Assembly (NCBI GenBank): GCA_040220235.1
Contig: JAVJTO010000051.1
Length of the DNA: 64,000 nucleotides
Reading direction: 5' to 3' (one strand)
Source of the DNA: Coleofasciculus sp. B1-GNL1-01
GTDB taxonomy: Bacteria > Cyanobacteriota > Cyanobacteriia > Cyanobacteriales > Coleofasciculaceae
The translations under genes and the position numbers were made by a program. Below are positions 42,313-59,849 of the stretch, piece after piece. How positions within the stretch are numbered: position 1 is the first letter of the stretch; each line of letters begins with the position of its first letter. Under the pieces are notes generated by a model that was not told where the DNA came from, did not search any database, and saw only the letters and a list, made by a program, of their open reading frames with translations.

Positions 42313-42436
42313 TATAAGTAGGTGGACACAATAAAAGCTAACGGTGGAGAACTCGCTTCCCTTGAGAAGCAAGCTACGTCCTTTGTCAGGGTTTATCGCT
42401 CAGGTGAGCCGCTACAGTATGCTAGACTAGGAGTCT

Positions 42437-42509
42437 GGGGAATTAGCTCAGTTGGTAGAGCGCTGCGATCGCACCGCAGAGGTCACCGGTTCAAATCCGG
42501 TATTCTCCA
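42437..42509 (+). tRNA. tRNA-Ala (anticodon CGC)
   Basis: 73-nt cloverleaf: GGGGAAT/ATTCTCC acceptor stem with G3:U70; anticodon arm CTGCG-ATCGCAC-CGCAG; T-loop TTCAAAT; CCA not encoded. Confidence 0.97.
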
Positions 42510-42513
42510 TTTT

Positions 42514-42578
42514 TGTCAATTGCCACATTATTTGTCATCGTTGTTTGATTAGTGTCATCTTGACAAATTGAATTAACT
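42514..42578 (+). mobile_element. Tn7-like (type V-K CAST-type) transposon end
   Basis: Terminal TGT 4 bp after the tRNA, then 20-bp-period TnsB-site-like units at 42521, 42541 and 42561 (TGCCACATTATTTGTCATCG / TTGTTTGATTAGTGTCATCT / TGACAAATT..). Confidence 0.7.
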
Positions 42579-42766
42579 GGCATCTGTGGTTAGATCGAAT
42601 TCATGCAAAACTTCAGTGAAAGTTGTAGGCGCGTTGGTTGCCCGATCAAAAGCCGATACCGTTGGAGTAAAATACTCAATGGAAGAGTTGCAGATCGGTG
42701 GCGATGATGGTCGTTTGCATCCCAATCCGCGAGAATTGAAATTCTGAGAGATTTAGCGTTAAAGCT

Positions 42767-43756
42767 ATGAATGCAGTCGAAATCGAAGAAGCTGTTTCCC
42801 AACTCGCCGAAGCTCCCTTTGACTCAGAGGAGTTTCCCTTTGCCTTCCTTATAAATCCCTACTTAATCACAGGAGTAAACACAATAATTCAGCCTATTTC
42901 AAAACCCATATCTTCTGTGGATGAGATGAGTTTCGGTAATATGCCGAATGAAGGTGGTTTTTTACTACTGGATCAGATTGAAGCAGAGAATGCCACCAAA
43001 AAGCATCAAGTAAAGTCCCACTTTATACGACACTTTATAGGTTCTCAAGAATTTATTAAGGGTCAGCAACGTCGTTGTATTTGGATCAATGATGACGAAT
43101 ATCCTGAAGCTAAACATAATGCTTGGTTAAGCGACAGGTTTGAATCCGTTCGCATCAAAAGAGAAACTTCCAATCGACAGACAACCAAGCAACTTGCAGA
43201 TACTCCATATCGTTTTGGTGAAGTTCGCCAGCGTGGTGATGAAAGAGTAATTGTAGTTGCTGCCATTAGTTCTGAAAATCGAGACTTTCTTCCCTGTGGA
43301 CTTCTACAACGAGGCACGATTATATCTAACAAATGCTACGCCCTATATGATGCCCCCCTCTGGAACATGGCAATCATCGCCTCGCGCCTCCACTGGGTCT
43401 GGATTGGCACAGTTTGCGTTCGCATGAGAACCGATTTTTCCTACTCCAACACCCTTGGCTGGAATACCTTCCCCGTCCCCACCCTCACTGAAAAAAATAA
43501 AACCGATCTCACCCGTTGCGCTGAAGACATCCTTTTAGCGCGGGAACAGTATTTCCCCGCCACGATTGCGGATATGTACGACCCAGAGCGCATGGACAAA
43601 GAGTTTCCCCTAGTGCGAGAAGCCCACGATCGCAATGATGAAGTATTAGAGCGCATCTACATCGGTCGTCGCTTCAAAAATGACACAGAACGCTTAGAGA
43701 AGCTGTTTGAACTTTATACGAAAATGACCACACCGAAATCTTCCTCAAGGTTGTAG
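42767..43756 (+). pseudogene. YeeA/MmeI-like type IIG/IIL DNA methyltransferase with a large in-frame internal deletion (N-terminal 28 aa fused to TRD and C-terminus)
   Basis: MNAVEIEEAVSQLAEAPFDSEEFPFAFL joined directly to INPYL..FGNMPNEGG..YSNTLGWNTFPVP..TIADMYDP..ERLEKLFELY; no SAM-binding or NPPF motifs. Confidence 0.8.
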
Positions 43757-43983
43757 TATTCGCCCTCATCCCCCAGCCCCTTCTCCCAATCTGGATATTG
43801 CTGGCGAATTGGAAAAACCTAACCCCCCAGCCCCCTTCCCTGCGTAGCTTGCTTCCCCGAAGGGGTGGGAAGGGGGAGAATCAAAGCCCCTCCTCGCGTC
43901 GGGGAGGGGTTTGGGGAGGGGTCTGACCCCTCAGTTAATGACCAGCAGTATCAATCTGAGAGAGGGATTTAGGGTGAGGGAAA

Positions 43984-44550
43984 TCAGAAGGCAATGTCTT
44001 CGTACAGGTTAGTCAACTCAGCTTCAAACTCAAGGCTAGTCAGGTGAAAAGTATTGTGACTGGGGGCATAGAATTGAAATAACCACAGCCCCTCCTCGGT
44101 ACGACGGTAACAATCTACTCGTTGCTGTCTGGTACTAATCAAGACATATTCTTGCAGACTGTCGAGGGTTTGATAGTCGATGAATTTATCCCCTCGGTCA
44201 AAGGCTTCGGTAGAGTCAGAGAGGACTTCAATGATTAGTTTGGGATAACGCTTATAGGTAGTAGTTTCTGCGTCGCGGGGGTCACAAGTCACCATCAAAT
44301 CAGGATAGTAGTAACAGTTGCACTCTTCAAGTCTGGCTTTGACATCGGCAAAATAGACGCGACAGTCTGACCCCCGTAGGTGGCTACGCAGCAGGGTGTA
44401 GAGGTTTCCAGCAATCGTATTATGAGCATCGGTTGTCCCCGCCATAGCATAGGCTTCACCATTGCGATATTCGTGTTTGGTGTCGCTGGTGGCTTCGAGT
44501 TGGAGGTACTCGTCAGGAGAGAGGTAATAATTGTCTGGGGTAGCAATCAT
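43984..44550 (-). CDS. Uma2 (DUF820) family endonuclease
   Basis: KHEYRNGEAYAMAG; YYPDLMVTCD; IIEVLSDSTEAFDRGDKF; LQEYVLI. Confidence 0.92.
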   Translation of the reverse strand: MIATPDNYYLSPDEYLQLEATSDTKHEYRNGEAYAMAGTTDAHNTIAGNLYTLLRSHLRGSDCRVYFADVKARLEECNCYYYPDLMVTCDPRDAETTTYKRYPKLIIEVLSDSTEAFDRGDKFIDYQTLDSLQEYVLISTRQQRVDCYRRTEEGLWLFQFYAPSHNTFHLTSLEFEAELTNLYEDIAF

Positions 44551-44712
44551 GGATGAGGAAGGGGTGAATTGGGTAGTCCTGTTTTTAATTTAGTTCAAAA
44601 AGTGCAATGCATTCAGCAGGCTACACCTACGCGCCTCCAACAGCAAGTCAAGCCCAATCTCAATCGGGGCAAATGATAAAATTAAACCAGTTTCTTCGCG
44701 TTAAACTAGCCA

Positions 44713-44952
44713 ATGCTGACCCTAGACCAACTCATTGCCGAAGCCACTGCCCTCCCTGATGCTGACAAAGCAATCCTGATTGATAAACTGACAGCAAGCA
44801 TGGACGAACAACGCACGGCTTCAAAAACCGCAACTATTCCCCCTGGTACTCTCACCAAACTTCGAGGTATCGCTAAACGTTCTAGAAAAACCCCCAGCGA
44901 TAAAGAACTGCAAGCAGAGTACACCGATTATTTAGTTCAAAAATATCAGTAA
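44713..44952 (+). CDS. Putative antitoxin upstream of the PIN toxin
   Basis: 79 aa; C-terminal KLRGIAK..PSDKELQAEYTDYLVQKYQ; 8 bp from the PIN gene. Confidence 0.7.
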   Translation: MLTLDQLIAEATALPDADKAILIDKLTASMDEQRTASKTATIPPGTLTKLRGIAKRSRKTPSDKELQAEYTDYLVQKYQ

Positions 44953-44960
44953 CCTTTCTC

Positions 44961-45371
44961 GTGAAAATTCTCATTGATACCAATGTTGTCATCGATCTAA
45001 TTTCGGAACGAGAACCCTTTGTGGAAGAGGCAGTGAGACTTTTCCAAAAGATTGAACAAGGTAATTTAGAGGGCTATATTGCAGCTACTACCATCACCAA
45101 TATTTTCTACATCATCCGCAAAATAGAAGGTCGTGCAGTTGCCCTCGAAGCAATCAAGCAACTTTTAAGCGGTCTAAGACTCTGTTCTGTTGACCGTCAG
45201 ACTATCGAAACAGCCCTTAGCTTTGACCTCATTGACTTTGAAGATGGCATTCAACTCGCCTGCGCGACTTTATCTCAACTTGACGGCATTGTAACCCGCG
45301 ATCGCCAAGATTTTCTCAACAGTCCCCTCCCTGTTTATTCCCCCACAGAACTGTTAAACCAACTCCAGTAG
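44961..45371 (+). CDS. PIN-domain (VapC-like, PIN_3) toxin
   Basis: ILIDTNVVID; DFEDGIQ; IVTRDRQDF. Confidence 0.88.
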   Translation: MKILIDTNVVIDLISEREPFVEEAVRLFQKIEQGNLEGYIAATTITNIFYIIRKIEGRAVALEAIKQLLSGLRLCSVDRQTIETALSFDLIDFEDGIQLACATLSQLDGIVTRDRQDFLNSPLPVYSPTELLNQLQ

Positions 45372-45448
45372 AAAACCGATGAACAACGCGATGCCTACGG
45401 CAGACAATGCTCTCGTCCTAAGCTAAAACGCATTTAAATTGGGAATGG

Positions 45449-45473
45449 GTAGCGAGCAAGATGCTCGCACTAC
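45449..45473. repeat. REP-like palindrome GTAGCGAGCAAGATGCTCGCACTAC; related copies at ~11202-11226 (inverted), ~21773-21797, ~38231-38254 and ~56237-56283 (tandem)
   Basis: GTAG/CTAC-flanked hairpin repeated across intergenic regions. Confidence 0.8.
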
Positions 45474-45474
45474 T

Positions 45475-45552
45475 ATTACACTATACGAACCCAACCCCAA
45501 AAAATGGAATAACAACTTTACGCAAAGGAGACTAAATAGCCATGACGACTAA
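45475..45552 (+). pseudogene. 3' remnant of a DUF4258 toxin-like gene
   Basis: ITLYEPNPKKWNNNFTQRR; begins right after a REP-like palindrome and overlaps the YgiT-type gene start. Confidence 0.6.
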
Positions 45553-45775
45553 CTCACAAGCAGCTTATGTTGAGAAACAAGTAACCTATACCTTAAATCT
45601 GAATGGTCAAATTATTTTGATCGAAAACGTCCCTGCCCGTGTTAATGAAGAAACAGGGGAACAGTTTTTCTCCCCCTCAACCGTAGAACATTTACAACAG
45701 ACCCTTTTAGATCACCCAGAACCCGACCATTTTATCCGCGTTCCGGTGTACAACTATTCAAAAAATGTAGCATGA
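45542..45775 (+). CDS. YgiT-type (MqsA-like) small protein, cysteine-less variant
   Basis: VTYTLNLNGQIILIENVPARVNEETGEQFFSPSTVE..VPVYNY; AGGAG RBS. Confidence 0.8.
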   Translation: MTTNSQAAYVEKQVTYTLNLNGQIILIENVPARVNEETGEQFFSPSTVEHLQQTLLDHPEPDHFIRVPVYNYSKNVA

Positions 45776-45805
45776 ATCCTCTGCCCAAAAATTTCTCCCT
45801 TGCCC

Positions 45806-47881
45806 ATGACCCAACCTAACACCATTCCCGCCGTTTCCGTCACCTACACCCAAGCGGGCACTTCTACTCGCCTCAATGAGCTAGGGATGCGCCCGATGCA
45901 GGAACGGGCTTACCAAAAGCGGGGGGAACAATACCTGTTGATTAAATCCCCCCCTGCGTCTGGCAAAAGTCGCGCCCTGATGTTCATCGCCCTGGATAAA
46001 CTCGAAAACCAGGGATTACAACAAGCGATTATTGTTGTTCCTGAAAAGTCCATCGGGGCAAGTTTTCACAATGAACCCCTGAGTCAGTTTGGTTTCTGGG
46101 CAGATTGGTTCGTTGAACCCAAGTGGAACCTCTGCGACGCACCGGGTACTGATGGCGGTAAGGTCGATGCAGTGCGGAAATTCCTTGATAGTGATGCCAA
46201 AGTGCTGGTCTGTACCCATGCCACCTTTCGCTTTGCCGTAGATAAATTTGGGGTGGAAGCCCTGGATAACCGCCTGATTGCCGTCGATGAGTTTCACCAC
46301 ATTTCCGCCAACCCAGACAACAAGCTGGGCGATATTATACGTCAACTGATCAGCCGCGACCAAACCCACATTGTCGCCATGACAGGTTCCTATTTTCGCG
46401 GGGATGCCGAAGCGGTGCTACATCCTGAGGACGAGGCGAGATTTGATACTGTCACCTACACCTATTACGAACAACTCAATGGCTACCAATACCTGAAACA
46501 ACTGGATATTGGCTACTATTTCTATGCAGGAAGCTACACCGACGCCATCATGGAGGTACTCAATCCCCAAGAGAAAACCATTATCCACATCCCCAACGTC
46601 AACTCCCGCGAAAGTACCAAAGATAAAATCCGCGAAGTCGAACACATCATCGAGGAACTAGGGGAATGGCAGGGAACTGACCCGGCAACGGGGTTTCAAC
46701 TGGTACAAACCGCCGATGGTAAAGTCTTGAAGATTGCCGATCTCGTAGACGACGACCCCAGCAAGCGAGATAAAGTCACAGCTACCCTGAAAGACCCCAG
46801 ACAGAAAAATAAGCGCGATCGCGTGGATATCATTATCGCCCTGGGTATGGCAAAGGAAGGCTTCGACTGGATTTGGTGCGAACACGCCCTCACCATCGGT
46901 TATCGTTCCAGCCTCACCGAGATTGTTCAAATCATCGGTCGCGCCACCCGTGATGCCCCCGGGAAAACCCACGCCCGTTTCACCAACCTCATCGCTGAAC
47001 CCGATGCCAGCGAAACTGCCGTGACTGAGGCAGTGAACGACACCCTCAAAGCCATTGCTGCCAGCCTCTTGATGGAACAGGTACTTGCTCCCCGCTTCGA
47101 GTTCAAACCGAAAAACCCCAACAATCAACCCACCCCTGGCTTTGATTACGGAGAAAATGGCTACGATCCCCATGGGTGTAATGTGGGAGTCAATGCAGAA
47201 ACGGGACAAATCCAGCTAGAAATTAAAGGACTCGCTGAACCCAAAAGCCAGGAAGCCCAACGGGTTTGTCGGGAGGACTTAACCGAACTGGTGACAGCTT
47301 TTGTCCAAGACAAGCCTAGCCTTGAGCGGGGTTTGTTCGACGAAGAACTGGTGCCAGAAGAACTAACCCAGGTGCGGATGGGCAAAATTATCACAGAGAA
47401 GTTTCCCGATTTAGAAAAGGAAGATCAAGAAGCAGTTCGTCAACACGCGATCGCGGCGCTTAACCTCGTCCAACAAGCCAAGCAAACCGTAAATGAAAAG
47501 GGTGGGACGTATAATGTGAATTCCAATGATGGCGAAGGGACAAAAAACACCGCCCTTATCGACGGGGTAAGGCAGTTCGCCCTCTCAGTTACAGAACTGG
47601 ATATGGATTTGATCGACCGCATCAATCCCTTTGGGGAAGCCTACGCTATCCTAGCTAAGTCCATGAGCGAAGAACGGCTCAAGCAAGTCGCGGCAGTGAT
47701 TGCTGCCAAGCGAATCAGTCTCTCGGTTGATGAAGCCAGAGAACTCGCCAAACGAGCAAAGCGATTCAAGCAGGAACGGGGACGATTACCCTCCCTCACA
47801 GCAACAGACCCCTGGGAAAAACGCATGGCTGAGGGGGTAGCTTTCCTGCAACGTAAAGTGAAGGAGGAAAAAAATGGTTAA
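45806..47881 (+). CDS. YeeB-like SF2 (DEAD/DEAH) helicase
   Basis: SPPASGKS; VDEFHH; MTGSYFRGD; GMAKEGFDW; QIIGRATRD. Confidence 0.88.
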   Translation: MTQPNTIPAVSVTYTQAGTSTRLNELGMRPMQERAYQKRGEQYLLIKSPPASGKSRALMFIALDKLENQGLQQAIIVVPEKSIGASFHNEPLSQFGFWADWFVEPKWNLCDAPGTDGGKVDAVRKFLDSDAKVLVCTHATFRFAVDKFGVEALDNRLIAVDEFHHISANPDNKLGDIIRQLISRDQTHIVAMTGSYFRGDAEAVLHPEDEARFDTVTYTYYEQLNGYQYLKQLDIGYYFYAGSYTDAIMEVLNPQEKTIIHIPNVNSRESTKDKIREVEHIIEELGEWQGTDPATGFQLVQTADGKVLKIADLVDDDPSKRDKVTATLKDPRQKNKRDRVDIIIALGMAKEGFDWIWCEHALTIGYRSSLTEIVQIIGRATRDAPGKTHARFTNLIAEPDASETAVTEAVNDTLKAIAASLLMEQVLAPRFEFKPKNPNNQPTPGFDYGENGYDPHGCNVGVNAETGQIQLEIKGLAEPKSQEAQRVCREDLTELVTAFVQDKPSLERGLFDEELVPEELTQVRMGKIITEKFPDLEKEDQEAVRQHAIAALNLVQQAKQTVNEKGGTYNVNSNDGEGTKNTALIDGVRQFALSVTELDMDLIDRINPFGEAYAILAKSMSEERLKQVAAVIAAKRISLSVDEARELAKRAKRFKQERGRLPSLTATDPWEKRMAEGVAFLQRKVKEEKNG

Positions 47882-49094
47882 ACACACCACTGATGAGGAT
47901 ATAGACCTACTCGCGGAATTAGGAGTAGATACCGCCCCTCCACCCCAAGTCAAGCGCACCCCCAGAGAAGAACGGATCATCGCTGGATTTGAGGAAATCG
48001 AACGCTTTGTCACCGAACAAGGGCGACTTCCTCAACACGGGGAAGACCGCGATATTTTTGAGCGCATCTACGCCGTGCGCTTAGATCGTCTACGGAACTC
48101 GGAGGAATGTCGCGCCCTCCTCGAACCGTTAGACTCACGGGGTATCCTCAATGCTGACACCGATTTTAACCTCCCTCCAGAAACAGATCTGGATGATGAA
48201 GCTCTGTTAACCTCCCTGGGGGTTGAGGCAACACCAGGGAACGATATTACCCAGCTTACCCATGTGCGATCGCGTAGCGTTGCCGGAGGCAAATCGCGTC
48301 AGGAGATTAAAGCTGCCGAGGAAATTGCCCAACGCACCCCCTGTCAGGACTTTAAACAGTTCAAACCCATCTTTAAAAAAGTGCAACAGGAGTTAGAAAC
48401 TGGGGCTAGAGAAACCCTGAAATATCGGGATGATGCCACTGTCAATCAGGGGGATTTCTTTATTCTGGATGGGCAGAAGTTGATTGTTGCCGATCTCGGT
48501 GAACCGTTTATTAGCGATTATGGTAAGCCAGACCGCAGGTTACGAGTCATTTATGACAACGGGACAGAGAGTAATTTATTGCTGCGATCGCTCCAACGGG
48601 CATTGAATAAAGACAAAACCAGTCGTCGCATCACCAACCCTGATTTTAGTTCCCTGCCCCTGTTTGCCCAAACCGAAGCCGAAGACGATATCACAACGGG
48701 CTACATCTATGTGCTCAGAAGCCAATCCGACGATCCTTTCATTGTTCAGAATTATGAGTTAGTCCACAAAATTGGTGTCACGGTCGGTGATGTCAAAAAG
48801 CGAATTGCTAACGCGGAAAAAGACCCAACCTACCTACTCGCAGAGGTGGAAATCGTCGCTACCTTCAAACTGGCTAATATCAACCCACAGAAACTGGAAG
48901 CACTCCTGCACAAGTTTTTCGACAATGTTCGTTTAGATGTAGAATTGCGCGATCGCTTTGGCATTCCCGTACAGCCGAGAGAATGGTTTCTCGTGCCATT
49001 AGAAGCGATTGAAGAAGCGATTGAAAAAATCAAAGCAGGAACAATCGATCAATTTCGCTACGATCCAGAAACAGCAAGTCTCACCAGCTCGTAA
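47874..49094 (+). CDS. YeeC-like GIY-YIG (T5orf172) nuclease
   Basis: GYIYVLRS..HKIGVT..KRIANAEKDPTYL..LEALLHKFF..PREWF; overlaps the helicase stop. Confidence 0.88.
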   Translation: MVKHTTDEDIDLLAELGVDTAPPPQVKRTPREERIIAGFEEIERFVTEQGRLPQHGEDRDIFERIYAVRLDRLRNSEECRALLEPLDSRGILNADTDFNLPPETDLDDEALLTSLGVEATPGNDITQLTHVRSRSVAGGKSRQEIKAAEEIAQRTPCQDFKQFKPIFKKVQQELETGARETLKYRDDATVNQGDFFILDGQKLIVADLGEPFISDYGKPDRRLRVIYDNGTESNLLLRSLQRALNKDKTSRRITNPDFSSLPLFAQTEAEDDITTGYIYVLRSQSDDPFIVQNYELVHKIGVTVGDVKKRIANAEKDPTYLLAEVEIVATFKLANINPQKLEALLHKFFDNVRLDVELRDRFGIPVQPREWFLVPLEAIEEAIEKIKAGTIDQFRYDPETASLTSS

Positions 49095-49278
49095 GGTCAT
49101 CCGAGCATCCTTCTCCGCATCCTCTGGACGTTCCTGTATATTTACAGTATAAGCGATGGTGCAGGCTCCCCCGTGTTTCAACCGGGGGAGTGTCAACCGT
49201 GTACCCAGGGAGTGTCGAAAATAGCTCTGTGTTGAATGTCCCGAAAGGACGCTCAACTGCTCCTCCCTCAGAAGGGCG
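49088..49278 (-). pseudogene. tnsB: tnsB (Tn7-like/V-K CAST DDE transposase) fragment interrupted by a ~50-bp insertion
   Basis: RPSEGGAVERPFGTFNTELFSTLPGYT-[insert]-NIQERPEDAEKDARMTLR, recognised as the catalytic-Glu region of cyanobacterial V-K TnsB. Confidence 0.8.
49146..49196 (-). mobile_element. IS200/IS605-like end remnant inside tnsB
   Basis: TTGAC followed by hairpin CTCCCCCG-GTTGAAACA-CGGGGGAG. Confidence 0.5.
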
Positions 49279-49556
49279 TAGGCGTAGCCCGTAGCCCGCC
49301 GAAGGCATCGCCCAGCCAATCGACGTAGCTGGTCAGTTTTACAAAGTAATTTTTCAGTTTGTTAAGGCTTTGGTAACTCTTGTATCAACATCACTACAAT
49401 CGTGAGTTGGTGGAGCCAGATGAGTTATGGTAAAAAAAACAAGCAATCCTTAAGTAATTCTTAAAGGAGTCGTGTTCTTGCTCAGATCGCGACACAGCGC
49501 TGGAAAACCAGCTTTATTTCTCGGCTGCTGCCACTTTACCTAAGGAAGGAGATTGT

Positions 49557-49790
49557 ATGACTCCCACAATGCTGCGTCAGTTGTGGTCTTTAATTGAAAC
49601 GACTCAAACGAATCTGCTACTGAAACTCGATGATGCTAGTCTGGTTCAGTGGATACTCAAGCAATTCAAACAAGAGCGAGGTCTTAACTCAGAGGAAATG
49701 CATATTTTGAATGACTATCTCTATAATCGCTTGTCTCTGATCCGGGATCTGGCAGAACAACGGTACACGGCGAGTAATCCGTCATCCTAG
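49557..49790 (+). CDS. Small cyanobacterial hypothetical protein
   Basis: Strong RBS (AAGGAG); MTPTMLRQLWSLIETTQ..LIRDLAEQR. Confidence 0.7.
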   Translation: MTPTMLRQLWSLIETTQTNLLLKLDDASLVQWILKQFKQERGLNSEEMHILNDYLYNRLSLIRDLAEQRYTASNPSS

Positions 49791-52907: not shown

Positions 52908-53170
52908 TGCAAGCATCTGTGTCTGTTCAGGTTTGGAAGGCTGGGGAATGGGGTGCAAATCCATACAGGGCTTGGGTTTGCGGCTAGTTCAAGGAGGAGG
53001 GAGATGCTTGCAAAATGCTGGAATTCCTTGTATAGTAAGGGCTGTAGCGTTTTGGATTTTGGGAATTTTGCCCCGATTTGACCCGATTTTGGCGTGAGGA
53101 GAGTTGGATTTTGGAGATGCTTGCAAAATCGATTGGCAGCCATTATGATTTAAGGGGTCTAGCGATCGCG
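52908..53170 (+). promoter_or_regulatory. CRISPR leader 1 with sigma70-like promoter (TTGCAA 53121-26 / 17 bp / TATGAT 53144-49)
   Basis: 263-bp sequence closely similar to leader 63399-63661. Confidence 0.85.
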
Positions 53171-54136
53171 GTGCTATTACCTTTGATGCCGTAAGGCGTT
53201 GAGCACGCTCGCAAAAAAACGGTTTCTGACGTGATACGTGAGTGCTATTACCTTTGATGCCGTAAGGCGTTGAGCACAAAACTTAGTGTTCGACAAAGAT
53301 AACACTGTATCGTGCTATTACCTTTGATGCCGTAAGGCGTTGAGCACGATAGATTTTTATTCAGCCTATCGTGGATTTTTTGGGTGCTATTACCTTTGAT
53401 GCCGTAAGGCGTTGAGCACAGAGCATTTAGACCTACGGCGCTACCCAAGCCAGTTGTGCTATTACCTTTGATGCCGTAAGGCGTTGAGCACCCTTCCTAG
53501 AGGGTAAATACTATACTTTATCTTTAGAGTGCTATTACCTTTGATGCCGTAAGGCGTTGAGCACTGAACCGTATTCTCTTTCAAATCCATCGTGACTGTA
53601 GTGCTATTACCTTTGATGCCGTAAGGCGTTGAGCACGTTCTCAGCCGTGTTTAAGATTGTTTGATTTCCCTGGTGCTATTACCTTTGATGCCGTAAGGCG
53701 TTGAGCACTAGTAAACGAGCCTGGTCAAAAGGGCTGTCCTGCTGTTGTGCTATTACCTTTGATGCCGTAAGGCGTTGAGCACTTAGTTTAAGCTGTCAGC
53801 AAGCAACTGAGAATAAGTGCTATTACCTTTGATGCCGTAAGGCGTTGAGCACGATACAGTGTTCTTGGGAAAAGAGCACCTAGAGATCTGTGCTATTACC
53901 TTTGATGCCGTAAGGCGTTGAGCACCTCCTTTTCGGAAAGAGGTATTGTTCGAGCCTCTGTGCTATTACCTTTGATGCCGTAAGGCGTTGAGCACAGACT
54001 AATAACACACAACAAGACACTCGGTTAAATGTGCTATTACCTTTGATGCCGTAAGGCGTTGAGCACGAAGAATCCTTAGATGCGATCGCGAATAGTTCTC
54101 GTGCGATTACCTCAGATGCCAATCGGCGTGTTCAAC
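53171..54136 (+). CRISPR. CRISPR array 1: 13 identical 36-bp repeats GTGCTATTACCTTTGATGCCGTAAGGCGTTGAGCAC plus a degenerate terminal repeat (54101-54136); 13 spacers of 34-38 bp
   Basis: Repeats start at 53171, 53242, 53312, 53384, 53456, 53529, 53601, 53673, 53747, 53817, 53890, 53960 and 54031. Confidence 0.98.
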
Positions 54137-54156
54137 TCTAACCAAAGGTATCTTTT

Positions 54157-55809
54157 ATGCAAACACTTGATTCGACCCAAGACACGATTCGTGTGTCTGC
54201 CCTCCACGCCCTCGCTTATTGTCCGCGCCTATTCTATCTAGAAGAAGTCGAAGAACTCTACACCCAAGACGCCGCCGTTTTTGCAGGGCGCCGACTCCAT
54301 GTCGAACTGGAAAAACAAGAGGATGAAGACTGGGAAGACTTATTCCTAGAAAGCCCAGAACTCGGATTACGCGGTCGAGTGGACGCCCTCCGCACCCGCG
54401 ATGGACAAACCATTCCCTACGAACATAAACGCGGACGCTGTTACCGAGACGAGAACAATCAACCCCAAGCCTGGGACAGTGATAAACTGCAAATTCTCGC
54501 CTACGCTTACCTGATTGAATCGGCTTTGGGTATCCCAATTTCAGAAGGACGAATTCGTTACCACGCCGATAACGTCTTAGTTCATGTTCCCCTAGATGAT
54601 CTCGGACGCGCCACGGTGCGAGATGCTATCCAACAAGCGCGAATTCTGCGACAATCCAGTCATCGTCCCCCCGTCACCGACAACGAGAGGATGTGTGTCC
54701 GTTGTTCCCTCTCCCCCGTCTGTTTACCCGAAGAAGCCCGACTCGCCCATAATCGGGAATGGCAACCGATGCGCCTCTTTCCCCCGGATGATGAACGCCA
54801 GGTGATTCATGTCTTGGAACCCGGAACAGCCGTTGGGCGTACCGGGGAACAACTGAAACTCAGCCGCCGGGGTCAACCTGTGGAAACGGTTCCCGTGCGT
54901 CAGGTGGGACAACTCGTCCTCCATAGTTTCTCCCAAATCTCCACCCAAGCGCTGCATTTTTGTGTGACTCAAGGAATTGGTGTGCATTTTATTTCTGGGG
55001 GTGGACGTTATATCGGTAGTTTTGATACCCGACAAGGCAGTATTCAGCGGCGCATCCATCAATATCAAGCCTTGAGTCAGCCGGATACTTGTCTGGAATT
55101 AGCCCGAAAATTAGTCACCTGTCGCGGTCAAGTACAGCGCAAATTCCTGATGCGGGGAAAGCGTGGCAGTCAGGGAAAATCGGCTAAACTAAAACGTGCG
55201 ATCGCGCAGATGAAAGCGGTACTAAAAAATGTCTCTTCTGCCCCATCTCGTGAATCGTTATTGGGATTGGAAGGGAATTTAGCCGCGTCCTATTTTGCCG
55301 CGTTACCCTGTTTAATTGCCGCCACAGTTCCGCCTGAATTACGCTTTGACCATCGCAATCGCCGCCCCCCCAAAGACCGATTTAATGCTTTGTTGAGTTT
55401 TGGCTATGCCTTATTAATTAAGGATGTGATGAATGCCATCCTCACCGTGGGACTAGAACCCGCATTGGGATTTTACCACCAACCTCGTTCTCAAGCTTCA
55501 CCATTGGCACTGGATTTAATGGAAATTTTCCGAGTTCCGTTGGTGGATATGGTGGTTATGGCTTCGATTAATAAAGGTCAGTGGGATGTACAAGCTGACT
55601 TTGACGTGCGAGGAGTACAGGTGTGGTTAAGTGATACGGGACGACGAAAGTTCGTGGGTTTATATGAACGCCGGAAACAGGAAACCTGGAAGCATCCTGT
55701 TACGGGTTATTCTCTCACCTATCGCCGTTTGTTGGAACTTGAAGTCCGTTTGCTGGAAAAAGAATGGTTCGGTGAAGGCGGTTTATTTGGTCAATTAATA
55801 GTGCGTTGA
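54157..55809 (+). CDS. cas1: Cas4-Cas1 fusion
   Basis: N-terminal YCPR..GRVD..EHKRG..C..CSL..VC (Cas4); C-terminal LLGLEG..YF..RRPPKDRFNALLSFGY..GFYH..LALDLMEIFR (Cas1). Confidence 0.95.
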   Translation: MQTLDSTQDTIRVSALHALAYCPRLFYLEEVEELYTQDAAVFAGRRLHVELEKQEDEDWEDLFLESPELGLRGRVDALRTRDGQTIPYEHKRGRCYRDENNQPQAWDSDKLQILAYAYLIESALGIPISEGRIRYHADNVLVHVPLDDLGRATVRDAIQQARILRQSSHRPPVTDNERMCVRCSLSPVCLPEEARLAHNREWQPMRLFPPDDERQVIHVLEPGTAVGRTGEQLKLSRRGQPVETVPVRQVGQLVLHSFSQISTQALHFCVTQGIGVHFISGGGRYIGSFDTRQGSIQRRIHQYQALSQPDTCLELARKLVTCRGQVQRKFLMRGKRGSQGKSAKLKRAIAQMKAVLKNVSSAPSRESLLGLEGNLAASYFAALPCLIAATVPPELRFDHRNRRPPKDRFNALLSFGYALLIKDVMNAILTVGLEPALGFYHQPRSQASPLALDLMEIFRVPLVDMVVMASINKGQWDVQADFDVRGVQVWLSDTGRRKFVGLYERRKQETWKHPVTGYSLTYRRLLELEVRLLEKEWFGEGGLFGQLIVR

Positions 55810-55817
55810 GGTGGGAT

Positions 55818-56111
55818 ATGGGTGAACAAAAAAACTGGTACTTAATTTGTTACGATATCCGCTGTCCCAAGCGCTGGCGCAAGGCGTATAAGTTACTTCA
55901 GGGATACGGTGAGCGGATTCAATACTCTATTTTCCGCTGTTTTTTGACCTTGCGGGGACGGGAAAAGTTGCGATGGGAGTTGGAGAGGGTATTAAAGGCG
56001 GAGGATAGTTTATTGCTAATTCGTCTTTCCGATCAATGTGTAAGTGGACTTCGCGCTTATAATCGTCCTGAGGCTTGGTCTGAGGTTCAAGCGGGATATC
56101 GGATTGTTTGA
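55818..56111 (+). CDS. cas2: Cas2
   Basis: WYLICYDIRCPKRWRK..GYGERIQYSIF. Confidence 0.95.
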   Translation: MGEQKNWYLICYDIRCPKRWRKAYKLLQGYGERIQYSIFRCFLTLRGREKLRWELERVLKAEDSLLLIRLSDQCVSGLRAYNRPEAWSEVQAGYRIV

Positions 56112-56307
56112 TGCAACACTTAAGATTACCTCGGATGCCATTAGGTGTTGATTGATCATGTTTTAACCTCTCTCCTACAAGGAGAGAGTGCTTTTCTACT
56201 CTTGGAAATGGTGTATCACATTGAGTCTGAAAACGCTGTAGCAGCGAGCAAGATGTTAGCAGCGAGCAAGATGCTCGCACTACTATAAGGATGGGTTTGG
56301 GAAAGGC

Positions 56308-56542
56308 TTGCCAAACCGATTGGCAGTTATTATGATTTAAGAGTTCCTGTGATCGCTGTGCCATTACCTTTGATGCTGTAAGCGTTGAGTAGAGTAGAGT
56401 AGAGTACCCATTAGGTGTTGAGCAGAGCAGCGTTGAGCACTATCCCGTAAGTTGGACAGTTGCTGTGAAGCGGGCGGTGAGATTTATTCTTACTTGGGTC
56501 TTGCTGTCCTTGTTCCCTCAGATGCCGTCAGGCGTTTTTCTT
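56308..56542 (+). ncRNA. Candidate crRNA-like regulatory RNA (leader-type promoter, pseudo-repeat, spacer matching the cas6 promoter, pseudo-repeat/terminator)
   Basis: TTGCCA-17-TATGAT at 56308-56336; pseudo-repeat 56358-56440 ending in an intact GCGTTGAGCAC; spacer from 56441 TATCCCGTAAGT; second pseudo-repeat 56507-56542 with GATGCC/GGCGTT stem and T-run. Confidence 0.7.
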
Positions 56543-56558
56543 GAATTTCCTTTTACTG

Positions 56559-56587
56559 TTGACGAGGTGTATAAACCAATGTATCCT
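56559..56587 (+). promoter_or_regulatory. Predicted promoter of the cas6-cas3-cas8-cas7-cas5 operon
   Basis: TTGACG (56559-64), 17 bp, TATCCT (56582-87). Confidence 0.7.
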
Positions 56588-56736
56588 GTAAGTAAGAATA
56601 GAACATCTTAAGCCAGATGGTGCTGAAATTTTGGCTGGTGGGCAATACCCACCCTACGACTGATTTGAGTGCCATTCATCCCCACCTCTGATCGCCGTCA
56701 GGCGCTGAAAACACCTGGTTTCAACTAGGTTCAACA

Positions 56737-57372
56737 ATGAATTCGACAATAGTAGAACGGCAAACAGGTGCGTCTCCTATCGAACTGTTTGTCAATTTAA
56801 GCTTTAGTATTCAAGGACAAATGCTGCCGGCTGATCACGGCTTTGGCTTGTTTTCGGCTTTATCTAAACTTTGTGCGGCGATTCACCAGCAGAATGAAAT
56901 TCAGATATTGACGATTCCCGGTATTCCCGATCGCCAAGGGAAGATTGCGCTGACGGATAGATCGCGCCTGCTGATTCGTTTACCGATTACCAAGATTCCC
57001 TTGGTTTATGCGATCGCGGGAAAGCGAGTTCACATTGGTAATCATCCCATCCAGATTGGGATTCCCAGGATTGAACCCCTCAACGCCAAGTCAAGGGTGC
57101 GATCGCGGATTGTGACGATTAAAGGTTATACCGAACCCGAATCCTTCCTCCAGGCGGCGCAGCGTCAACTGAATCGGTTGGGGGTGTCGGGAGAGGTGCG
57201 AATTCCTCTAAATCGGGATCAAACACCAAAGCGCAAAGCGATAAAAATTCAGCAGGATACGGTAGTTGGATTTACCACTGAAGTTAGCCATCTTAGTGAA
57301 GAGGATTCCCTGACATTGCAACGGTGGGGATTAGGAGGGCGGCGACACATGGGTTGTGGGGTGTTTTTGTAA
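56737..57372 (+). CDS. cas6: Cas6 (Cmx6, MYXAN type)
   Basis: LPADHGFGLFSALS; RIVTIKG; Gly-rich loop GLGGRRHMGCGVF. Confidence 0.93.
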   Translation: MNSTIVERQTGASPIELFVNLSFSIQGQMLPADHGFGLFSALSKLCAAIHQQNEIQILTIPGIPDRQGKIALTDRSRLLIRLPITKIPLVYAIAGKRVHIGNHPIQIGIPRIEPLNAKSRVRSRIVTIKGYTEPESFLQAAQRQLNRLGVSGEVRIPLNRDQTPKRKAIKIQQDTVVGFTTEVSHLSEEDSLTLQRWGLGGRRHMGCGVFL

Positions 57373-57497
57373 CCACTGATTTGACAGATTTATGGGGGAG
57401 ATGGGGGTGGGGGTGAGAGGTTAGTCACACTGATTACACTGAAACGTTAGTTCTCTCGTCTTGGGATGCTGAATCTGCCGCGAAAATTAGGTTGATT

Positions 57498-59849
57498 ATG
57501 TCTAAATTTAAACGACTTCTGGCTAAATCTATCTCTGATTCTGACTCAATTCGGAGTCAAAATGCGGCAAGATTTATAGGTCATATTGCTTTAGTTAAAC
57601 GAGGGGCTGAGGTATTACTTCAGCGTTTAGATAAACGGATTTTTCAACAACTGGGATTGGATGAGAATGAAGTGGAATTATTTACCAATACGGTGAGATT
57701 GGGGGCGTACTTACATGATTGGGGTAAGGCAAATCAGCATTTTCAAGAGATGGTTTATCTGCATACTGCCAAAAAATCCCAAGATCCGAAAAAACGGGAC
57801 AAGCTTAAACAACTGCGTCAATTATGGAATAAACATCAGGGTAAACAAATGATTCGCCATGAAGTTTTAAGCGGTATCCTCGCCTTGCGTGTTCCTGAAT
57901 TTCGCCATTGGTTAGAACAATGTCCCAATACTAATCTGGTGATAGCTGTTTGGGCGGCGATGGGACATCATTTGAAGATGAGTTCTGACCTGGACTTGAC
58001 AATCCGTAGTGGTACCGGAAGTGGTTTATTTATTTATACCGACCACAATGATTTTAAACAAATGTTAAAAATGGGTCGGCAATTGGGACTCCCGGCTAAT
58101 TTGCCTGCCGTTCCTGGAAAAGTTTGGCAGAAGGAAGAACTAGAACGAGAATTAAAAGAATTATATCAGGAATTTGACCAGATTGAACAGCAGATTATCG
58201 CTGAAAACGATACTAGGCGACTGAGATTTATTGCGGCGGTGAAAGCTACGGTAATCGCGGCGGATTTAGCGGGTTCGGCTTTACCTGTTGTGGACGAGAA
58301 TATTAAGGATTGGATTGAGAACGTTTTATCGATTACCCTATCTGAAAACGACTTAGATCAGGTTCTCCAACAACGACTGCAAGGGAAAAAATTACGCCCG
58401 TTTCAACAGAAAATTGCCGCGACTCCCCATCGAATTACTTTAGTTAAAGCCGGGTGTGGTACGGGAAAAACCGTTGGGGCGTATGCGTGGGCAAAAAAAT
58501 GGGCAGGCGATCGCAAGTTATTTTTTGGCTATCCGACGACGGGAACCGCGACTCAGGGGTTTATTGATTACGCCCATGAGACAAAAATTGAAGCCGATTT
58601 AATGCATTCTCGCGCTGATTTAGACCGAGAGATCTTGTTTTCTGGGGATGAAGATGAAGGGATTGAGGATCGCTTAGCCGCCCTCACCGCTTGGAGACAA
58701 AAGTTGATTGTTTGCACCGTAGATACGGTTTTGGGGCTAATGCAAAATAATCGGCGATCGCTGTATTCCTGGAGTGCGATCGCTCAAGGGGCTTTTGTGT
58801 TTGATGAGGTTCATGCTTATGATAACCGCTTATTTGGGGCTTTATTGCGATTTATAGACACCTTTCGCGGCGCACCCATTCTGTTGATGAGTGCCAGTTT
58901 TACACCAGAACAGATTCAGGCAATTCAAGGAGTAGTTGGCGAATTAGGAGAAGCGACTCAGATTATTGAAGGTCCGAAAAATTTAGAAGTTTTACCGCGA
59001 TATCAGATTGAGTCTATCCCATCAGCCGATAACGCTTGGCAGAAGGTGCGAGAAACCTTAACTCGTCAACACCAGAATAAAGTGTTATGGGTGACAAATT
59101 CGGTTAACACCTGTCGGGAACTGTATCTAGAGGCAAAAAAACAGCTTCCGGATTCAATCCCTATATTAATTTATCACAGTCGCTATCGCTATTTTGACCG
59201 ATTGGAGAAACATAAAGCCGTGATCAACGCCTTTGAACGTGACGGGGCGGTGTTAGCAATTACCACTCAAGTTTGTGAAATGTCCTTAGATTTGAGTGCG
59301 GATTTATTAGTCACGCCCATCGCCCCAGCATCGGCGTTAATTCAGCGATTAGGGCGATTAAATCGGCGGGTGATTACTACAGCAAACTATCGGGTAAAAC
59401 TGGCGTCGGGTCAAATTACCCCAGCCTTAGTTTACCCCTGGGATGATTCACGTCCTTATTCCCAAGACGAATTAGAAACGGGACAGCAGTTGGTTAATAA
59501 ACTAGCCGAAAAAGTGATTTCCCAGCAAGATTTAGCCACGATTGTCGCCCAAATGTCTACTCCAGAACAACAGCCAAGTCAATCGGAATGGTTAGAGGGA
59601 TGTTGGTGTACCCGTCCTAATTTTCTACGGGAACCGGGCTATACGATTACGGTTTTACTAGAGGAAGATTTAGTTAATATTAAAAATGCCGCCAATCAAC
59701 GTCAGGATAAATCCTTTAAAAAAGAACGTCAACGGTGGACAATTCCAATTCGGATTATCCCTGGGTTTGAGAAGTGGCGGCGGAATGGATATTATCCCAT
59801 CGCACCCCCTGATCAAGTGGAATACAGTTCAGAAACAGGGGCAAAATGA
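57498..59849 (+). CDS. cas3: Cas3 HD nuclease-helicase
   Basis: LHDWGKAN; RHE; GHH; AADLAGS; GCGTGKT; FDEVH; YHSRY; TQVCEMSLD; QRLGRLNR. Confidence 0.95.
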   Translation: MSKFKRLLAKSISDSDSIRSQNAARFIGHIALVKRGAEVLLQRLDKRIFQQLGLDENEVELFTNTVRLGAYLHDWGKANQHFQEMVYLHTAKKSQDPKKRDKLKQLRQLWNKHQGKQMIRHEVLSGILALRVPEFRHWLEQCPNTNLVIAVWAAMGHHLKMSSDLDLTIRSGTGSGLFIYTDHNDFKQMLKMGRQLGLPANLPAVPGKVWQKEELERELKELYQEFDQIEQQIIAENDTRRLRFIAAVKATVIAADLAGSALPVVDENIKDWIENVLSITLSENDLDQVLQQRLQGKKLRPFQQKIAATPHRITLVKAGCGTGKTVGAYAWAKKWAGDRKLFFGYPTTGTATQGFIDYAHETKIEADLMHSRADLDREILFSGDEDEGIEDRLAALTAWRQKLIVCTVDTVLGLMQNNRRSLYSWSAIAQGAFVFDEVHAYDNRLFGALLRFIDTFRGAPILLMSASFTPEQIQAIQGVVGELGEATQIIEGPKNLEVLPRYQIESIPSADNAWQKVRETLTRQHQNKVLWVTNSVNTCRELYLEAKKQLPDSIPILIYHSRYRYFDRLEKHKAVINAFERDGAVLAITTQVCEMSLDLSADLLVTPIAPASALIQRLGRLNRRVITTANYRVKLASGQITPALVYPWDDSRPYSQDELETGQQLVNKLAEKVISQQDLATIVAQMSTPEQQPSQSEWLEGCWCTRPNFLREPGYTITVLLEEDLVNIKNAANQRQDKSFKKERQRWTIPIRIIPGFEKWRRNGYYPIAPPDQVEYSSETGAK

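Follow-up and report, generated by a model that had tools for sequence, protein, structure and literature searches.

The closest described systems to the locus reported here are the type V-K CASTs, such as ShCAST/Tn7747, AcCAST/Tn7746 and AnCAST. Passages of PMC9938897 give their order as tRNA, left end, cargo, inward-facing tnsB and right end, with a GTN PAM lying 46–82 nt from the end. Parts of a survey of cas12k loci report that the tnsBCQ operon is kept in 152 of 282 and has been lost by decay in 130 (bioRxiv 10.1101/2021.02.06.429022). Decayed V-K elements at tRNAs have already been described and are common, and a single further locus matters little. A copy decayed as far as this one would escape surveys based on cas12k.

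The window is the whole 64,000-nucleotide stretch of DNA that was analyzed, from contig JAVJTO010000051.1 of Coleofasciculus sp. B1-GNL1-01. Within it, an island of 6.8 kb (42514–49325) sits directly behind a tRNA-Ala(CGC) gene. Like the V-K CASTs, the locus has a left end behind the tRNA, an inward tnsB, and restriction-modification and toxin-antitoxin cargo, and its order of tRNA, left end, cargo, inward tnsB and right end is the same as that of the intact element in the relative G019. Unlike them, it is without cas12k, cvkR, tracrRNA, array, anchor spacer, tnsC and tniQ, its tnsB is a 45-codon scrap, and its right end is a 12-bp stub. We conclude that, very probably, a Cas12k-guided (type V-K) transposon once homed to tRNA-Ala(CGC) and left this island as its immobile remnant. 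Because cas12k, the defining gene, is gone, we infer V-K membership from the ends and the transposase. A preliminary description had likewise read the locus as a decayed V-K CAST at tRNA-Ala; this reading is supported, with details of the PAM, stub, duplication and cargo corrected below. The features are as follows.

42436–42510 (Rfam 42437–42509), plus strand: tRNA-Ala(CGC), the attachment (homing) site, from Rfam and from homing spacers in 34 cyanobacterial loci
42455–42474, plus strand: likely PAM GTA (42455–57) and 17-nt anchor protospacer (42458–74), the PAM lying 56 bp before the left end
42514–42577, plus strand: V-K-type left end, TGT and three 20-bp-spaced TnsB-site-like units, the third degenerate
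42767–43756, plus strand: yeeA/MmeI-like gene (Pfam MmeI_TRD, MmeI_C)
43984–44550, minus strand: Uma2-family putative nuclease (PF05685, E 1e-39)
44713–45371, plus strand: 79-aa probable antitoxin and PIN-domain toxin (PIN_3, E 1.5e-21; DUF2281 weak, below cut-off)
45542–45775, plus strand: YgiT-type zinc-finger small protein (TIGR03831)
45800–47881, plus strand: YeeB-type superfamily 2 helicase (DEAD/ResIII), motifs intact
47874–49094, plus strand: YeeC-type T5orf172/GIY-YIG protein, final codons supplied by the tnsB scrap
49084–49143, minus strand: tnsB scrap, 3' piece, identical to the cas12k-linked TnsB of G010 at 15/18 residues and 45/57 bases
[quoted passage not shown]
49197–49278, minus strand: tnsB scrap, 5' piece, catalytic-core region, identical to G010 TnsB at 26/27 residues
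49279–49306, plus strand: 28-bp SDR5-like repeat (21-bp unit and 7-bp internal duplication) inside a HIP1 site
49314–49325, minus strand: 12-bp right-end stub with a mutated terminal base, stopping exactly at the empty-site junction
49326–49790: promoter and 77-aa gene, right flank of the island

The limits of the island are fixed by the empty site of G002, a member of the same genus, in which the tRNA is joined directly to 49326 and the sequence 42514–42578 is absent. The preliminary reading, which was to fall if island-free relatives carried that sequence, survives this comparison. In nine of the 24 relatives' tRNA loci examined, G002 among them, the tRNA is followed directly by this promoter and its 77-aa gene. 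No cas12k was found at the tRNA site in eight genus relatives, two of which (G005 and G007) were not readable at the tRNA. The span first proposed, 42437–49311, had the locus right but ended 14 bp short of the right boundary, and no right end had been reported. A stub of one does survive at 49314–49325, and from its sequence and position it is likely a remnant of the right end: G001, G003, G005, G006 and G008 retain a TGT with an 11–12-bp end match there, and G004 lengthens the match by 2 bp.

The preliminary description had also expected an ATTTT duplication beyond the right end. The right flank instead reads TAGCT against ATTTT on the left, so the target-site duplication is absent. This and the shortness of the stub, just 11–12 bp, stand against the V-K reading. 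An exact 5-bp duplication was found in only two of 14 other natural end pairs used as a control set, and its absence is common even among intact V-K elements.

Cargo varies strongly within the genus, with type I restriction-like genes in G008 and a different 1 kb of genes in G006, and the tnsB scrap occurs in only two of nine genomes (G000 and G007). Both observations would suit an island that an integrase-type element or a recombination event had delivered, with the transposon end and tnsB scrap as unrelated debris. However, the island contains no integrase, its right boundary has no repeat of the tRNA 3' end, and both boundaries are inward-facing TGT-type ends at the exact junction. This reading is largely refuted, and we consider it extremely unlikely.

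At the left boundary, the TGT begins at 42514, four bases past the CCA of the tRNA, as first described. The 20-bp-period units end in TGTCA at 42537 and 42557, and the third, degenerate unit reaches 42577. We searched the 8.66-Mb genome with a profile built from 14 ends adjoining cas12k genes (one of its rows, L022, stood in the wrong orientation yet was included). This left end was the top site at 46.2 bits, followed by sites at 18.8 and 11.7 bits, so the match is not a chance one. It also shares 51 of 64 positions with the ends that adjoin an intact cas12k in G019 and in G010. Profile and alignment together uphold the V-K type of the units first noticed here. Just 189 bp separate the left end from yeeA. 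A 53-codon ORF in this interval (42586–42747) has no Pfam or NCBIfam family match and is found in the same place in G001 and G004 only.

The tnsB scrap (49084–49278, minus strand, 45 codons) points toward the tRNA, in agreement with the unannotated fragment of the preliminary description. Its 5' piece matches ShCAST TnsB (PDB 7svw, residues 310–339, E 2e-9), and in total 41 of its 45 residues (91%) are identical to cas12k-linked TnsB. The four best DNA matches among 60 relatives (G010, G019, G055 and G049) all share a contig with an intact cas12k. A fragment closer to something other than Tn7/Mu-type TnsB had been named as grounds for abandoning the reading; the best matches are Mu-type/V-K TnsB, and the reading survives. 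The scrap resembles the 553-aa V-K TnsB and not the long TnsB forms; the other TnsB of this genome (C85, 898 aa) matches it at just 12/27 and 5/18 residues.

As no CRISPR part is left, the source of the island might instead be a Tn7-like/Tn5053-like element that lacks both TnsA and Cas12k, or a tRNA-targeting TnsAB/TnsD element of the I-B2/I-D branch. Parts of PMC9881144 describe the TnsA-less clade as 'predominated' by V-K elements rather than made up of them alone, and state that other cyanobacterial Tn7-like elements target tRNAs as well. We nevertheless regard such an origin as improbable, given the high identity of the scrap to cas12k-linked TnsB, its distance from the 898-aa TnsB, and the match of the left end to cas12k-linked ends. 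Moreover, the tRNA-targeting TnsAB elements (I-B2, I-D) are described in sections of bioRxiv 10.1101/2021.02.06.429022 as having a fused TnsA-TnsB, whereas the scrap matches the 553-aa type.

The junction between tnsB scrap and right stub is spanned by contigs in three of four sequencing runs, from different studies, and is identical in G007. The relic that splits the scrap we take to be of IS200/IS605 type, without a library match; each of its halves matches many dispersed hairpin ends across this genome and genus. The neighboring 28-bp repeat, which occurs once in the genome, is presumably the SDR5 of Elhai et al. (2008). It lies between the third and fourth bases of a HIP1 site that forms part of the tnsB Arg-Asp-Arg codons. 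Insertion between these two bases is reported for the small dispersed repeat SDR5 in a portion of PMC4390886, and 21-bp copies sit likewise in all six other-genome loci inspected. The repeat here shares this position and differs by its 7-bp internal duplication.

Searches for the remaining machinery agree with the preliminary description, in which cas12k, tracrRNA, array, tnsC and tniQ were not found. The genome (172 contigs, 100% complete by marker genes) contains no cas12k by NF038191 search and tblastn, no match to G019 TnsC and TniQ queries at E 1e-4 (tblastn), and no homing spacer; tracrRNA- and array-region queries had no match on this contig. With all of these missing, the element is dead, and the present island would serve as passive cargo only. 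A trans-acting helper elsewhere in the genome was considered and rejected, as there are no V-K genes and the C85 TnsB/TnsC/TniQ set is distant. Also set aside was a nearby CRISPR array (53153–54069), whose 12 spacers match neither the island nor any relative locus examined.

The cargo had been described as defense cargo, V-K CASTs being known to carry restriction-modification and toxin-antitoxin genes. A likely toxin-antitoxin pair, of type II from its domains, is present, while the restriction-type module no longer has a methylase domain. An internal deletion of 2379 bp at 42850/42851, which keeps the reading frame, leaves yeeA with its N-terminal 28 residues and its target-recognition and C-terminal domains, and the methylase motifs are gone; the G003 copy (1119 aa) has an MTase domain with both motifs. 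This deletion is bridged in none of four sequencing runs, so its support is this assembly alone. The YgiT-type protein is missing the 110-aa upstream partner that is present in G001, and yeeC carries a 24-bp in-frame insert near 48273. The RNA runs contain just 0.23–0.25 of the words.

Compared by domains and order alone, these genes resemble the DnmA(YeeA)-YeeB-YeeC cluster, a 'second set' of MmeI homologues (PMC2731913), in having an MmeI-like gene, a DEAD helicase and a GIY-YIG/T5orf172 gene in one direction. They differ in that three to four passenger genes separate yeeA from yeeB and in that yeeA of this genome has no intact methyltransferase domain. The three-gene order of yeeA-yeeB-yeeC type recurs on a Nitrobacter plasmid.

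We propose the following history. Cas12k with a 17-nt homing guide would have recognized the protospacer of the tRNA at its GTA PAM. TniQ, TnsC and TnsB would then have placed the element 56 bp downstream with its left end leading, so that the tRNA stayed whole. In an ancestor of the studied genus members, cas12k may have been deleted along with the tracrRNA, array and homing spacer, and the right end would have been cut to ~12 bp and probably joined to mid-tnsB. In this lineage, tnsB would have gained the SDR5-like repeat at the HIP1 site, and an IS200/IS605-like element may have entered it and later collapsed between twin hairpins. A further deletion would have fused the scrap to the end of yeeC, with loss of tnsC, tniQ and ~3 kb of cargo kept in G001 and G003. 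Deletion of the yeeA methylase domain would be the last step. The genus offers a well-resolved decay series of empty site, 1-kb remnant, and 7–13-kb islands with differing cargo, in which cargo outlives the transposon at the tRNA-Ala(CGC) island.

One observation is not well explained by a single V-K element. Over the first 14 positions, the left end (type …GCCACA) and the right stub (type …GACTAA in G004, whose longer stub was used) differ at three, while six intact left/right end pairs differ at zero to two. A refinement, which we entertain at somewhat less than even confidence, is that two or more V-K transposons, arriving successively at the same tRNA, made the island a palimpsest, the right stub and tnsB scrap coming from the older element and the left end from a younger, tRNA-side insertion. 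The stub type is that of the left end of another G004 element (L078), the island flanks form no duplication, and a TGT stub occurs in 14 of 20 homing loci having at least four bases between tRNA and end. Nostoc sp. NIES-4103 shows nesting directly at its tRNA-Ala(CGC): there the 5-bp duplication consists of the five bases that open an older end, and the older element's tnsB and matching end lie ~47 kb further. However, no second left or right end was found inside the five genus islands scanned, a duplication is often missing even in intact elements, and drift in a dead element can yield three mismatches. Three sequencing runs show an extra TGTC ahead of this left end, but in the same contigs it adjoins a 12-bp tandem duplication, so slippage explains it equally well.

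More generally, we tentatively suggest that V-K transposons of differing end types may re-target an occupied tRNA, landing in the first bases of the resident left end. Such serial homing could conceivably, though we lean slightly against it, stack defense cargo in a growing island whose outer ends come from different elements. If true, it would explain the TGT stubs and absent duplication in most of the natural V-K elements sampled, and V-K target immunity in nature would, by implication, be specific to the end type; serial nesting, if general, is a testable claim on target immunity between CASTs whose end types differ. Searches relying on ends and duplications would overlook most natural V-K boundaries. 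A search by title and abstract opening found no account of V-K elements nested at tRNAs; Table S1 and Fig. S1 (att sites, PAM distances) of bioRxiv 10.1101/2021.02.06.429022 may already hold the tRNA-Ala(CGC) register and nested cases.

Returning to the V-K remnant itself, a GTT at 42451–53 had been noted as lying 60 bp before the TGT. Its presence and distance are correct, but spacers favor another PAM. A repeat followed by a tRNA-Ala(CGC) spacer gave 43 database matches, and all 34 cyanobacterial ones start after GTA. None of the 43 is in the GTT register by a pattern search that was exact, so that a mismatched spacer could escape it, and GTT was rejected as the PAM. Given the 34 cyanobacterial spacers, the PAM is likely GTA at 42455–57, 56 bp from the end. 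Across 27 parsed loci this distance is 52–69 bp, and it is 56 bp in three. A GTN within 46–82 bp, as found here, is weak evidence by itself because tRNAs contain several. One match to the tRNA-end pattern, in G018:C61, was dismissed as chance, there being no tRNA there. Judging by these spacers, tRNA-Ala(CGC) is common as a V-K homing site, and a by-product of the analysis is its natural homing register, GTA and not GTT. The intact V-K element of Anabaena azotica SJ-1 uses the same tRNA-Ala CGC and GTA protospacer, but its end is of another subtype and lies at 53 bp, whereas the intact G019 and G010 elements, of the same family, share the end and TnsB subtypes of this island but home to tRNA-Val GAC at 60–62 bp.

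The island at tRNA-Ala(CGC) is real, and likely dead and derived from a type V-K CAST (V-K), a Cas12k-guided Tn7-like transposon. It is one more example of something known; several reports already describe decayed V-K elements (bioRxiv 10.1101/2021.02.06.429022; PMC9938897; PMC11406308; PMC9881144; PMC8649781). Its parts are as follows.

42436-42510, plus strand: tRNA-Ala(CGC), the sole tRNA found by ARAGORN
42514-42577: left (tRNA-side) end, starting with TGT four bases past CCA; TGTCA-ending units at 42537 and 42557, third unit to 42577
Between the ends: cargo, with a yeeA/MmeI-like gene, Uma2, an antitoxin-like gene and PIN toxin, a YgiT finger, a helicase and a T5orf172 protein
49084-49278, minus strand: tnsB pieces (the scrap)
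49325-49314, minus strand: 12-bp right-end stub, window sequence CGTCGATTGGCT

The preliminary description had proposed comparing the left-end sequence with relatives that lack the island, and one of these, G002 (G001-G008 are of the same genus), joins the tRNA straight to the sequence at 49326. Among the tRNA-Ala(CGC) loci of 24 relatives, nine (G002 and eight from other genera) run directly into the promoter and 77-aa gene found beside the window's island; in the remainder the gene is more distant in two, and end-like sequence occurs in several. From the G002 junction and these nine loci we infer that the empty arrangement is ancestral and that the island spans 42514-49325. G002 would either never have had the element or have lost it.

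A V-K-like left end had been described just behind the tRNA, and the comparison confirms it. The window's left end shares 51 of 64 bases with ends adjoining intact cas12k in G019 and G010, both of the same family. With a profile built from 14 cas12k-linked ends, one of them a mis-oriented row, the site scores 46.2 bits, the highest in the whole of the window's genome (G000), followed by 18.8 and 11.7. The tail of the third unit is degenerate in the window and intact in G008. Four of the eight genus relatives have the same left end at the same position; only the first unit remains in G001 and G004, and only TGTCG in G006. The right end, reported as not found, had been overlooked. On the minus strand the right junction reads TGTCGATTGACT in five relatives and has a slightly eroded form, two bases longer, in G004. 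In G000, 7 in 10,000 positions carry a stub-type 11-mer with at most two mismatches; as the junction was fixed independently, a stub there by chance would be unlikely.

The tnsB fragment pointing to the tRNA is indeed of V-K type. The scrap matches ShCAST TnsB (PDB 7svw, residues 310-339; E 2e-9), as well as Mu-type transposases of cyanobacterial plasmids. Of the tnsB DNA in 60 relatives, that of G010, G019, G055 and G049 matches it best, and each of these copies lies on a contig with intact cas12k. Its two pieces are identical to G010 TnsB at 26/27 and 15/18 residues, versus only 12/27 and 5/18 for the other TnsB of G000, on contig C85. A 53-bp hairpin splits the scrap, with halves matching both kinds of dispersed insertion-sequence ends in G000; we read it as an element, presumably IS200/IS605-like, that may have collapsed between twin hairpins. 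On the 5' side, a HIP1 octamer in the Arg-Asp-Arg codons of tnsB (HIP1 density in this 8.66-Mb, 172-contig genome is 0.81 sites per kb) is split between bases three and four by a 28-bp insert, whose 21-bp form has a like HIP1 context in 6/6 other loci inspected and is present in 13/61 genomes. Insertion between the third and fourth HIP1 base is the rule stated for SDR5 in PMC4390886, and in this position the insert resembles SDR5. The right stub lies two bases beyond the interrupted site; on the 3' side, the final codons of yeeC are supplanted by the scrap. A further small dispersed repeat may be present in yeeC, where a 24-bp in-frame insert that three sequencing runs lack adjoins a HIP1 site (48266-48297).

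The scrap/stub junction is not an assembly error, because it is identical in full in G007 and is spanned by contigs from three of four sequencing runs from separate studies. At the same spot, G001, G003 and G004 carry 1.5-3.2 kb of other cargo and tnsB is absent. In the simplest history the gene order stays the standard one; a shared deletion would first have fused the right stub to mid-tnsB, and separate deletions would afterwards have taken either the remaining tnsB or the adjacent cargo, presumably in that order.

Cyanobacterial V-K elements abound among the relatives of G000, and 18 of the 61 genomes, G000 and relatives together, have cas12k above its family cut-off. No cas12k was found in G000, Cas12k, CvkR-like, TnsC and TniQ proteins of G019 gave no match there, and no V-K repeat with a homing spacer was found in it. 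On the window's contig, C51, 11 tracrRNA/array-region queries had no match, though they readily find one another. The loss of machinery described earlier thus holds for cas12k, tnsC and tniQ across G000 and for tracrRNA and array on C51, and the element is predicted to be unable to move. Elsewhere, G000:C143:556-602 and 5881-5920 match V-K array/tracrRNA regions over 40-47 bp and probably belong to a CRISPR array whose repeat is related. G000:C85:48029-54684 holds a separate Tn7-like set unrelated to the scrap (898-aa TnsB, 395-aa TnsC, 414-aa TniQ-like; a cas6-like gene adjoins) that may represent a CRISPR-associated element or one that targets CRISPR. Window 53153-59849 contains a CRISPR array of 13 repeats, then a cas4-cas1 fusion, cas2-like, cas6 and cas3; spacers of this array had no match to the island.

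Across 185,579 species genomes we looked for the tail of the V-K repeat with tRNA-Ala(CGC) sequence 0-4 bases behind it. Of 43 loci, 34 were gapless, all cyanobacterial by record title; in 31 of these the locus contains the tRNA, and the PAM is GTA. The nine gapped loci are non-cyanobacterial. PAM-to-end distance was 52-69 bp over 27 parsed loci, three of them at 56 bp. In the window, GTA at 42455-57 is likewise 56 bp from the left end, within the 46-82 range given in PMC9938897. A script detected a homing spacer in 16 of 26 relatives' loci, after GTN every time. The GTT PAM at 60 bp proposed at first gives way to the likelier GTA: the 34 gapless loci fit the GTA register, and the 60-bp spacing is that of a coincidental second GTN. 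The predicted homing spacer starting GGTA was seen in none of the nine gapped loci, and none of the 43 exact-pattern matches starts after GTT.

The island has no target-site duplication: the left flank reads ATTTT (ATTTG in G001) versus TAGCT on the right, and the ATTTT sought beyond the right end is not there. This is no evidence against the V-K reading because control elements mostly have no exact duplication. Exact 5-bp copies were found in 0/6 cas12k + tnsB elements with the right end located (a seventh without one was left out; one end pair is 250 kb apart) and, among 11 elements at tRNA-Ala(CGC), in 2/8 of those whose right end matches at least 22/24 bases, with contig linkage confirmed for only part; by eye, a 6-bp repeat is visible in one and a 4-bp repeat in another.

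Instead of a single element, the island could represent nested V-K insertions at one tRNA, a possibility from which we lean slightly away. Nesting at tRNA-Ala(CGC) is direct in Nostoc sp. NIES-4103, where the duplication consists of an older end's first five bases and the older tnsB and matching end lie ~47 kb on. Of 20 loci whose gap is at least four bases, 14 have a TGT stub ahead of the end, which would also fit nesting, as would the 3/14 differing bases between left end and right stub (that of G004) in the window's genus, against 0-2 in six intact pairs. However, five islands scanned contained no internal ends, and the extra TGTC of three sequencing runs is explicable by slippage. In NIES-4103 (L129, L209, L213; AP018288.1, ~1.609-1.689 Mb) the younger V-K sits five bases inside the left end of the older one, and the duplication is perfect. 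G055:C35 (L004, L159) is probably another nested pair: a TGTACAGTG stub stands in the left flank, and ~830 bp past the first right end comes a second one of the stub's type.

As for cargo, the methylase-helicase-GIY-YIG set fits YeeA/B/C as presented in PMC2731913, and such genes stand side by side on a Nitrobacter plasmid. V-K transposons usually carry restriction and toxin-antitoxin genes as cargo, according to PMC9938897 and PMC8649781. From yeeA, 2379 bp are gone in frame, both methylase motifs included, a deletion bridged by 0/4 sequencing runs; the yee module probably no longer works as a restriction system. The G008 island has type I restriction-like genes in its place. The yeeA target-recognition region (42851-43340) is unalignable in G001, G004 and G007 while its flanks align, which suggests that specificity domains were swapped. 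L063:3919-7278 (G003) encodes a full-length YeeA with an internal DUF559 nuclease-like domain (residues 312-412). A 153-bp segment before yeeA (42600-42752), common to G001 and G004 and absent in G003, had no family match.

G000 carries other V-K traces. C119:48053-53616 is another decayed island, where a second end of V-K type, scoring 18.8 bits and with its TGT intact, faces tRNA-Thr(GGT) 5.5 kb off and the left end is gone; at tRNA-Thr(GGT), left ends are present in G004 and G039. An eroded end-like sequence of another V-K end type follows tRNA-Gly(TCC) at C135:30279, and a short TGTACA stub follows tRNA-Val(TAC) at C112:6393. At C100:7671-9038, at least 12 tRNA genes form an array resembling the cryptic L-array of filamentous cyanobacteria, as labelled in PMC9938897.
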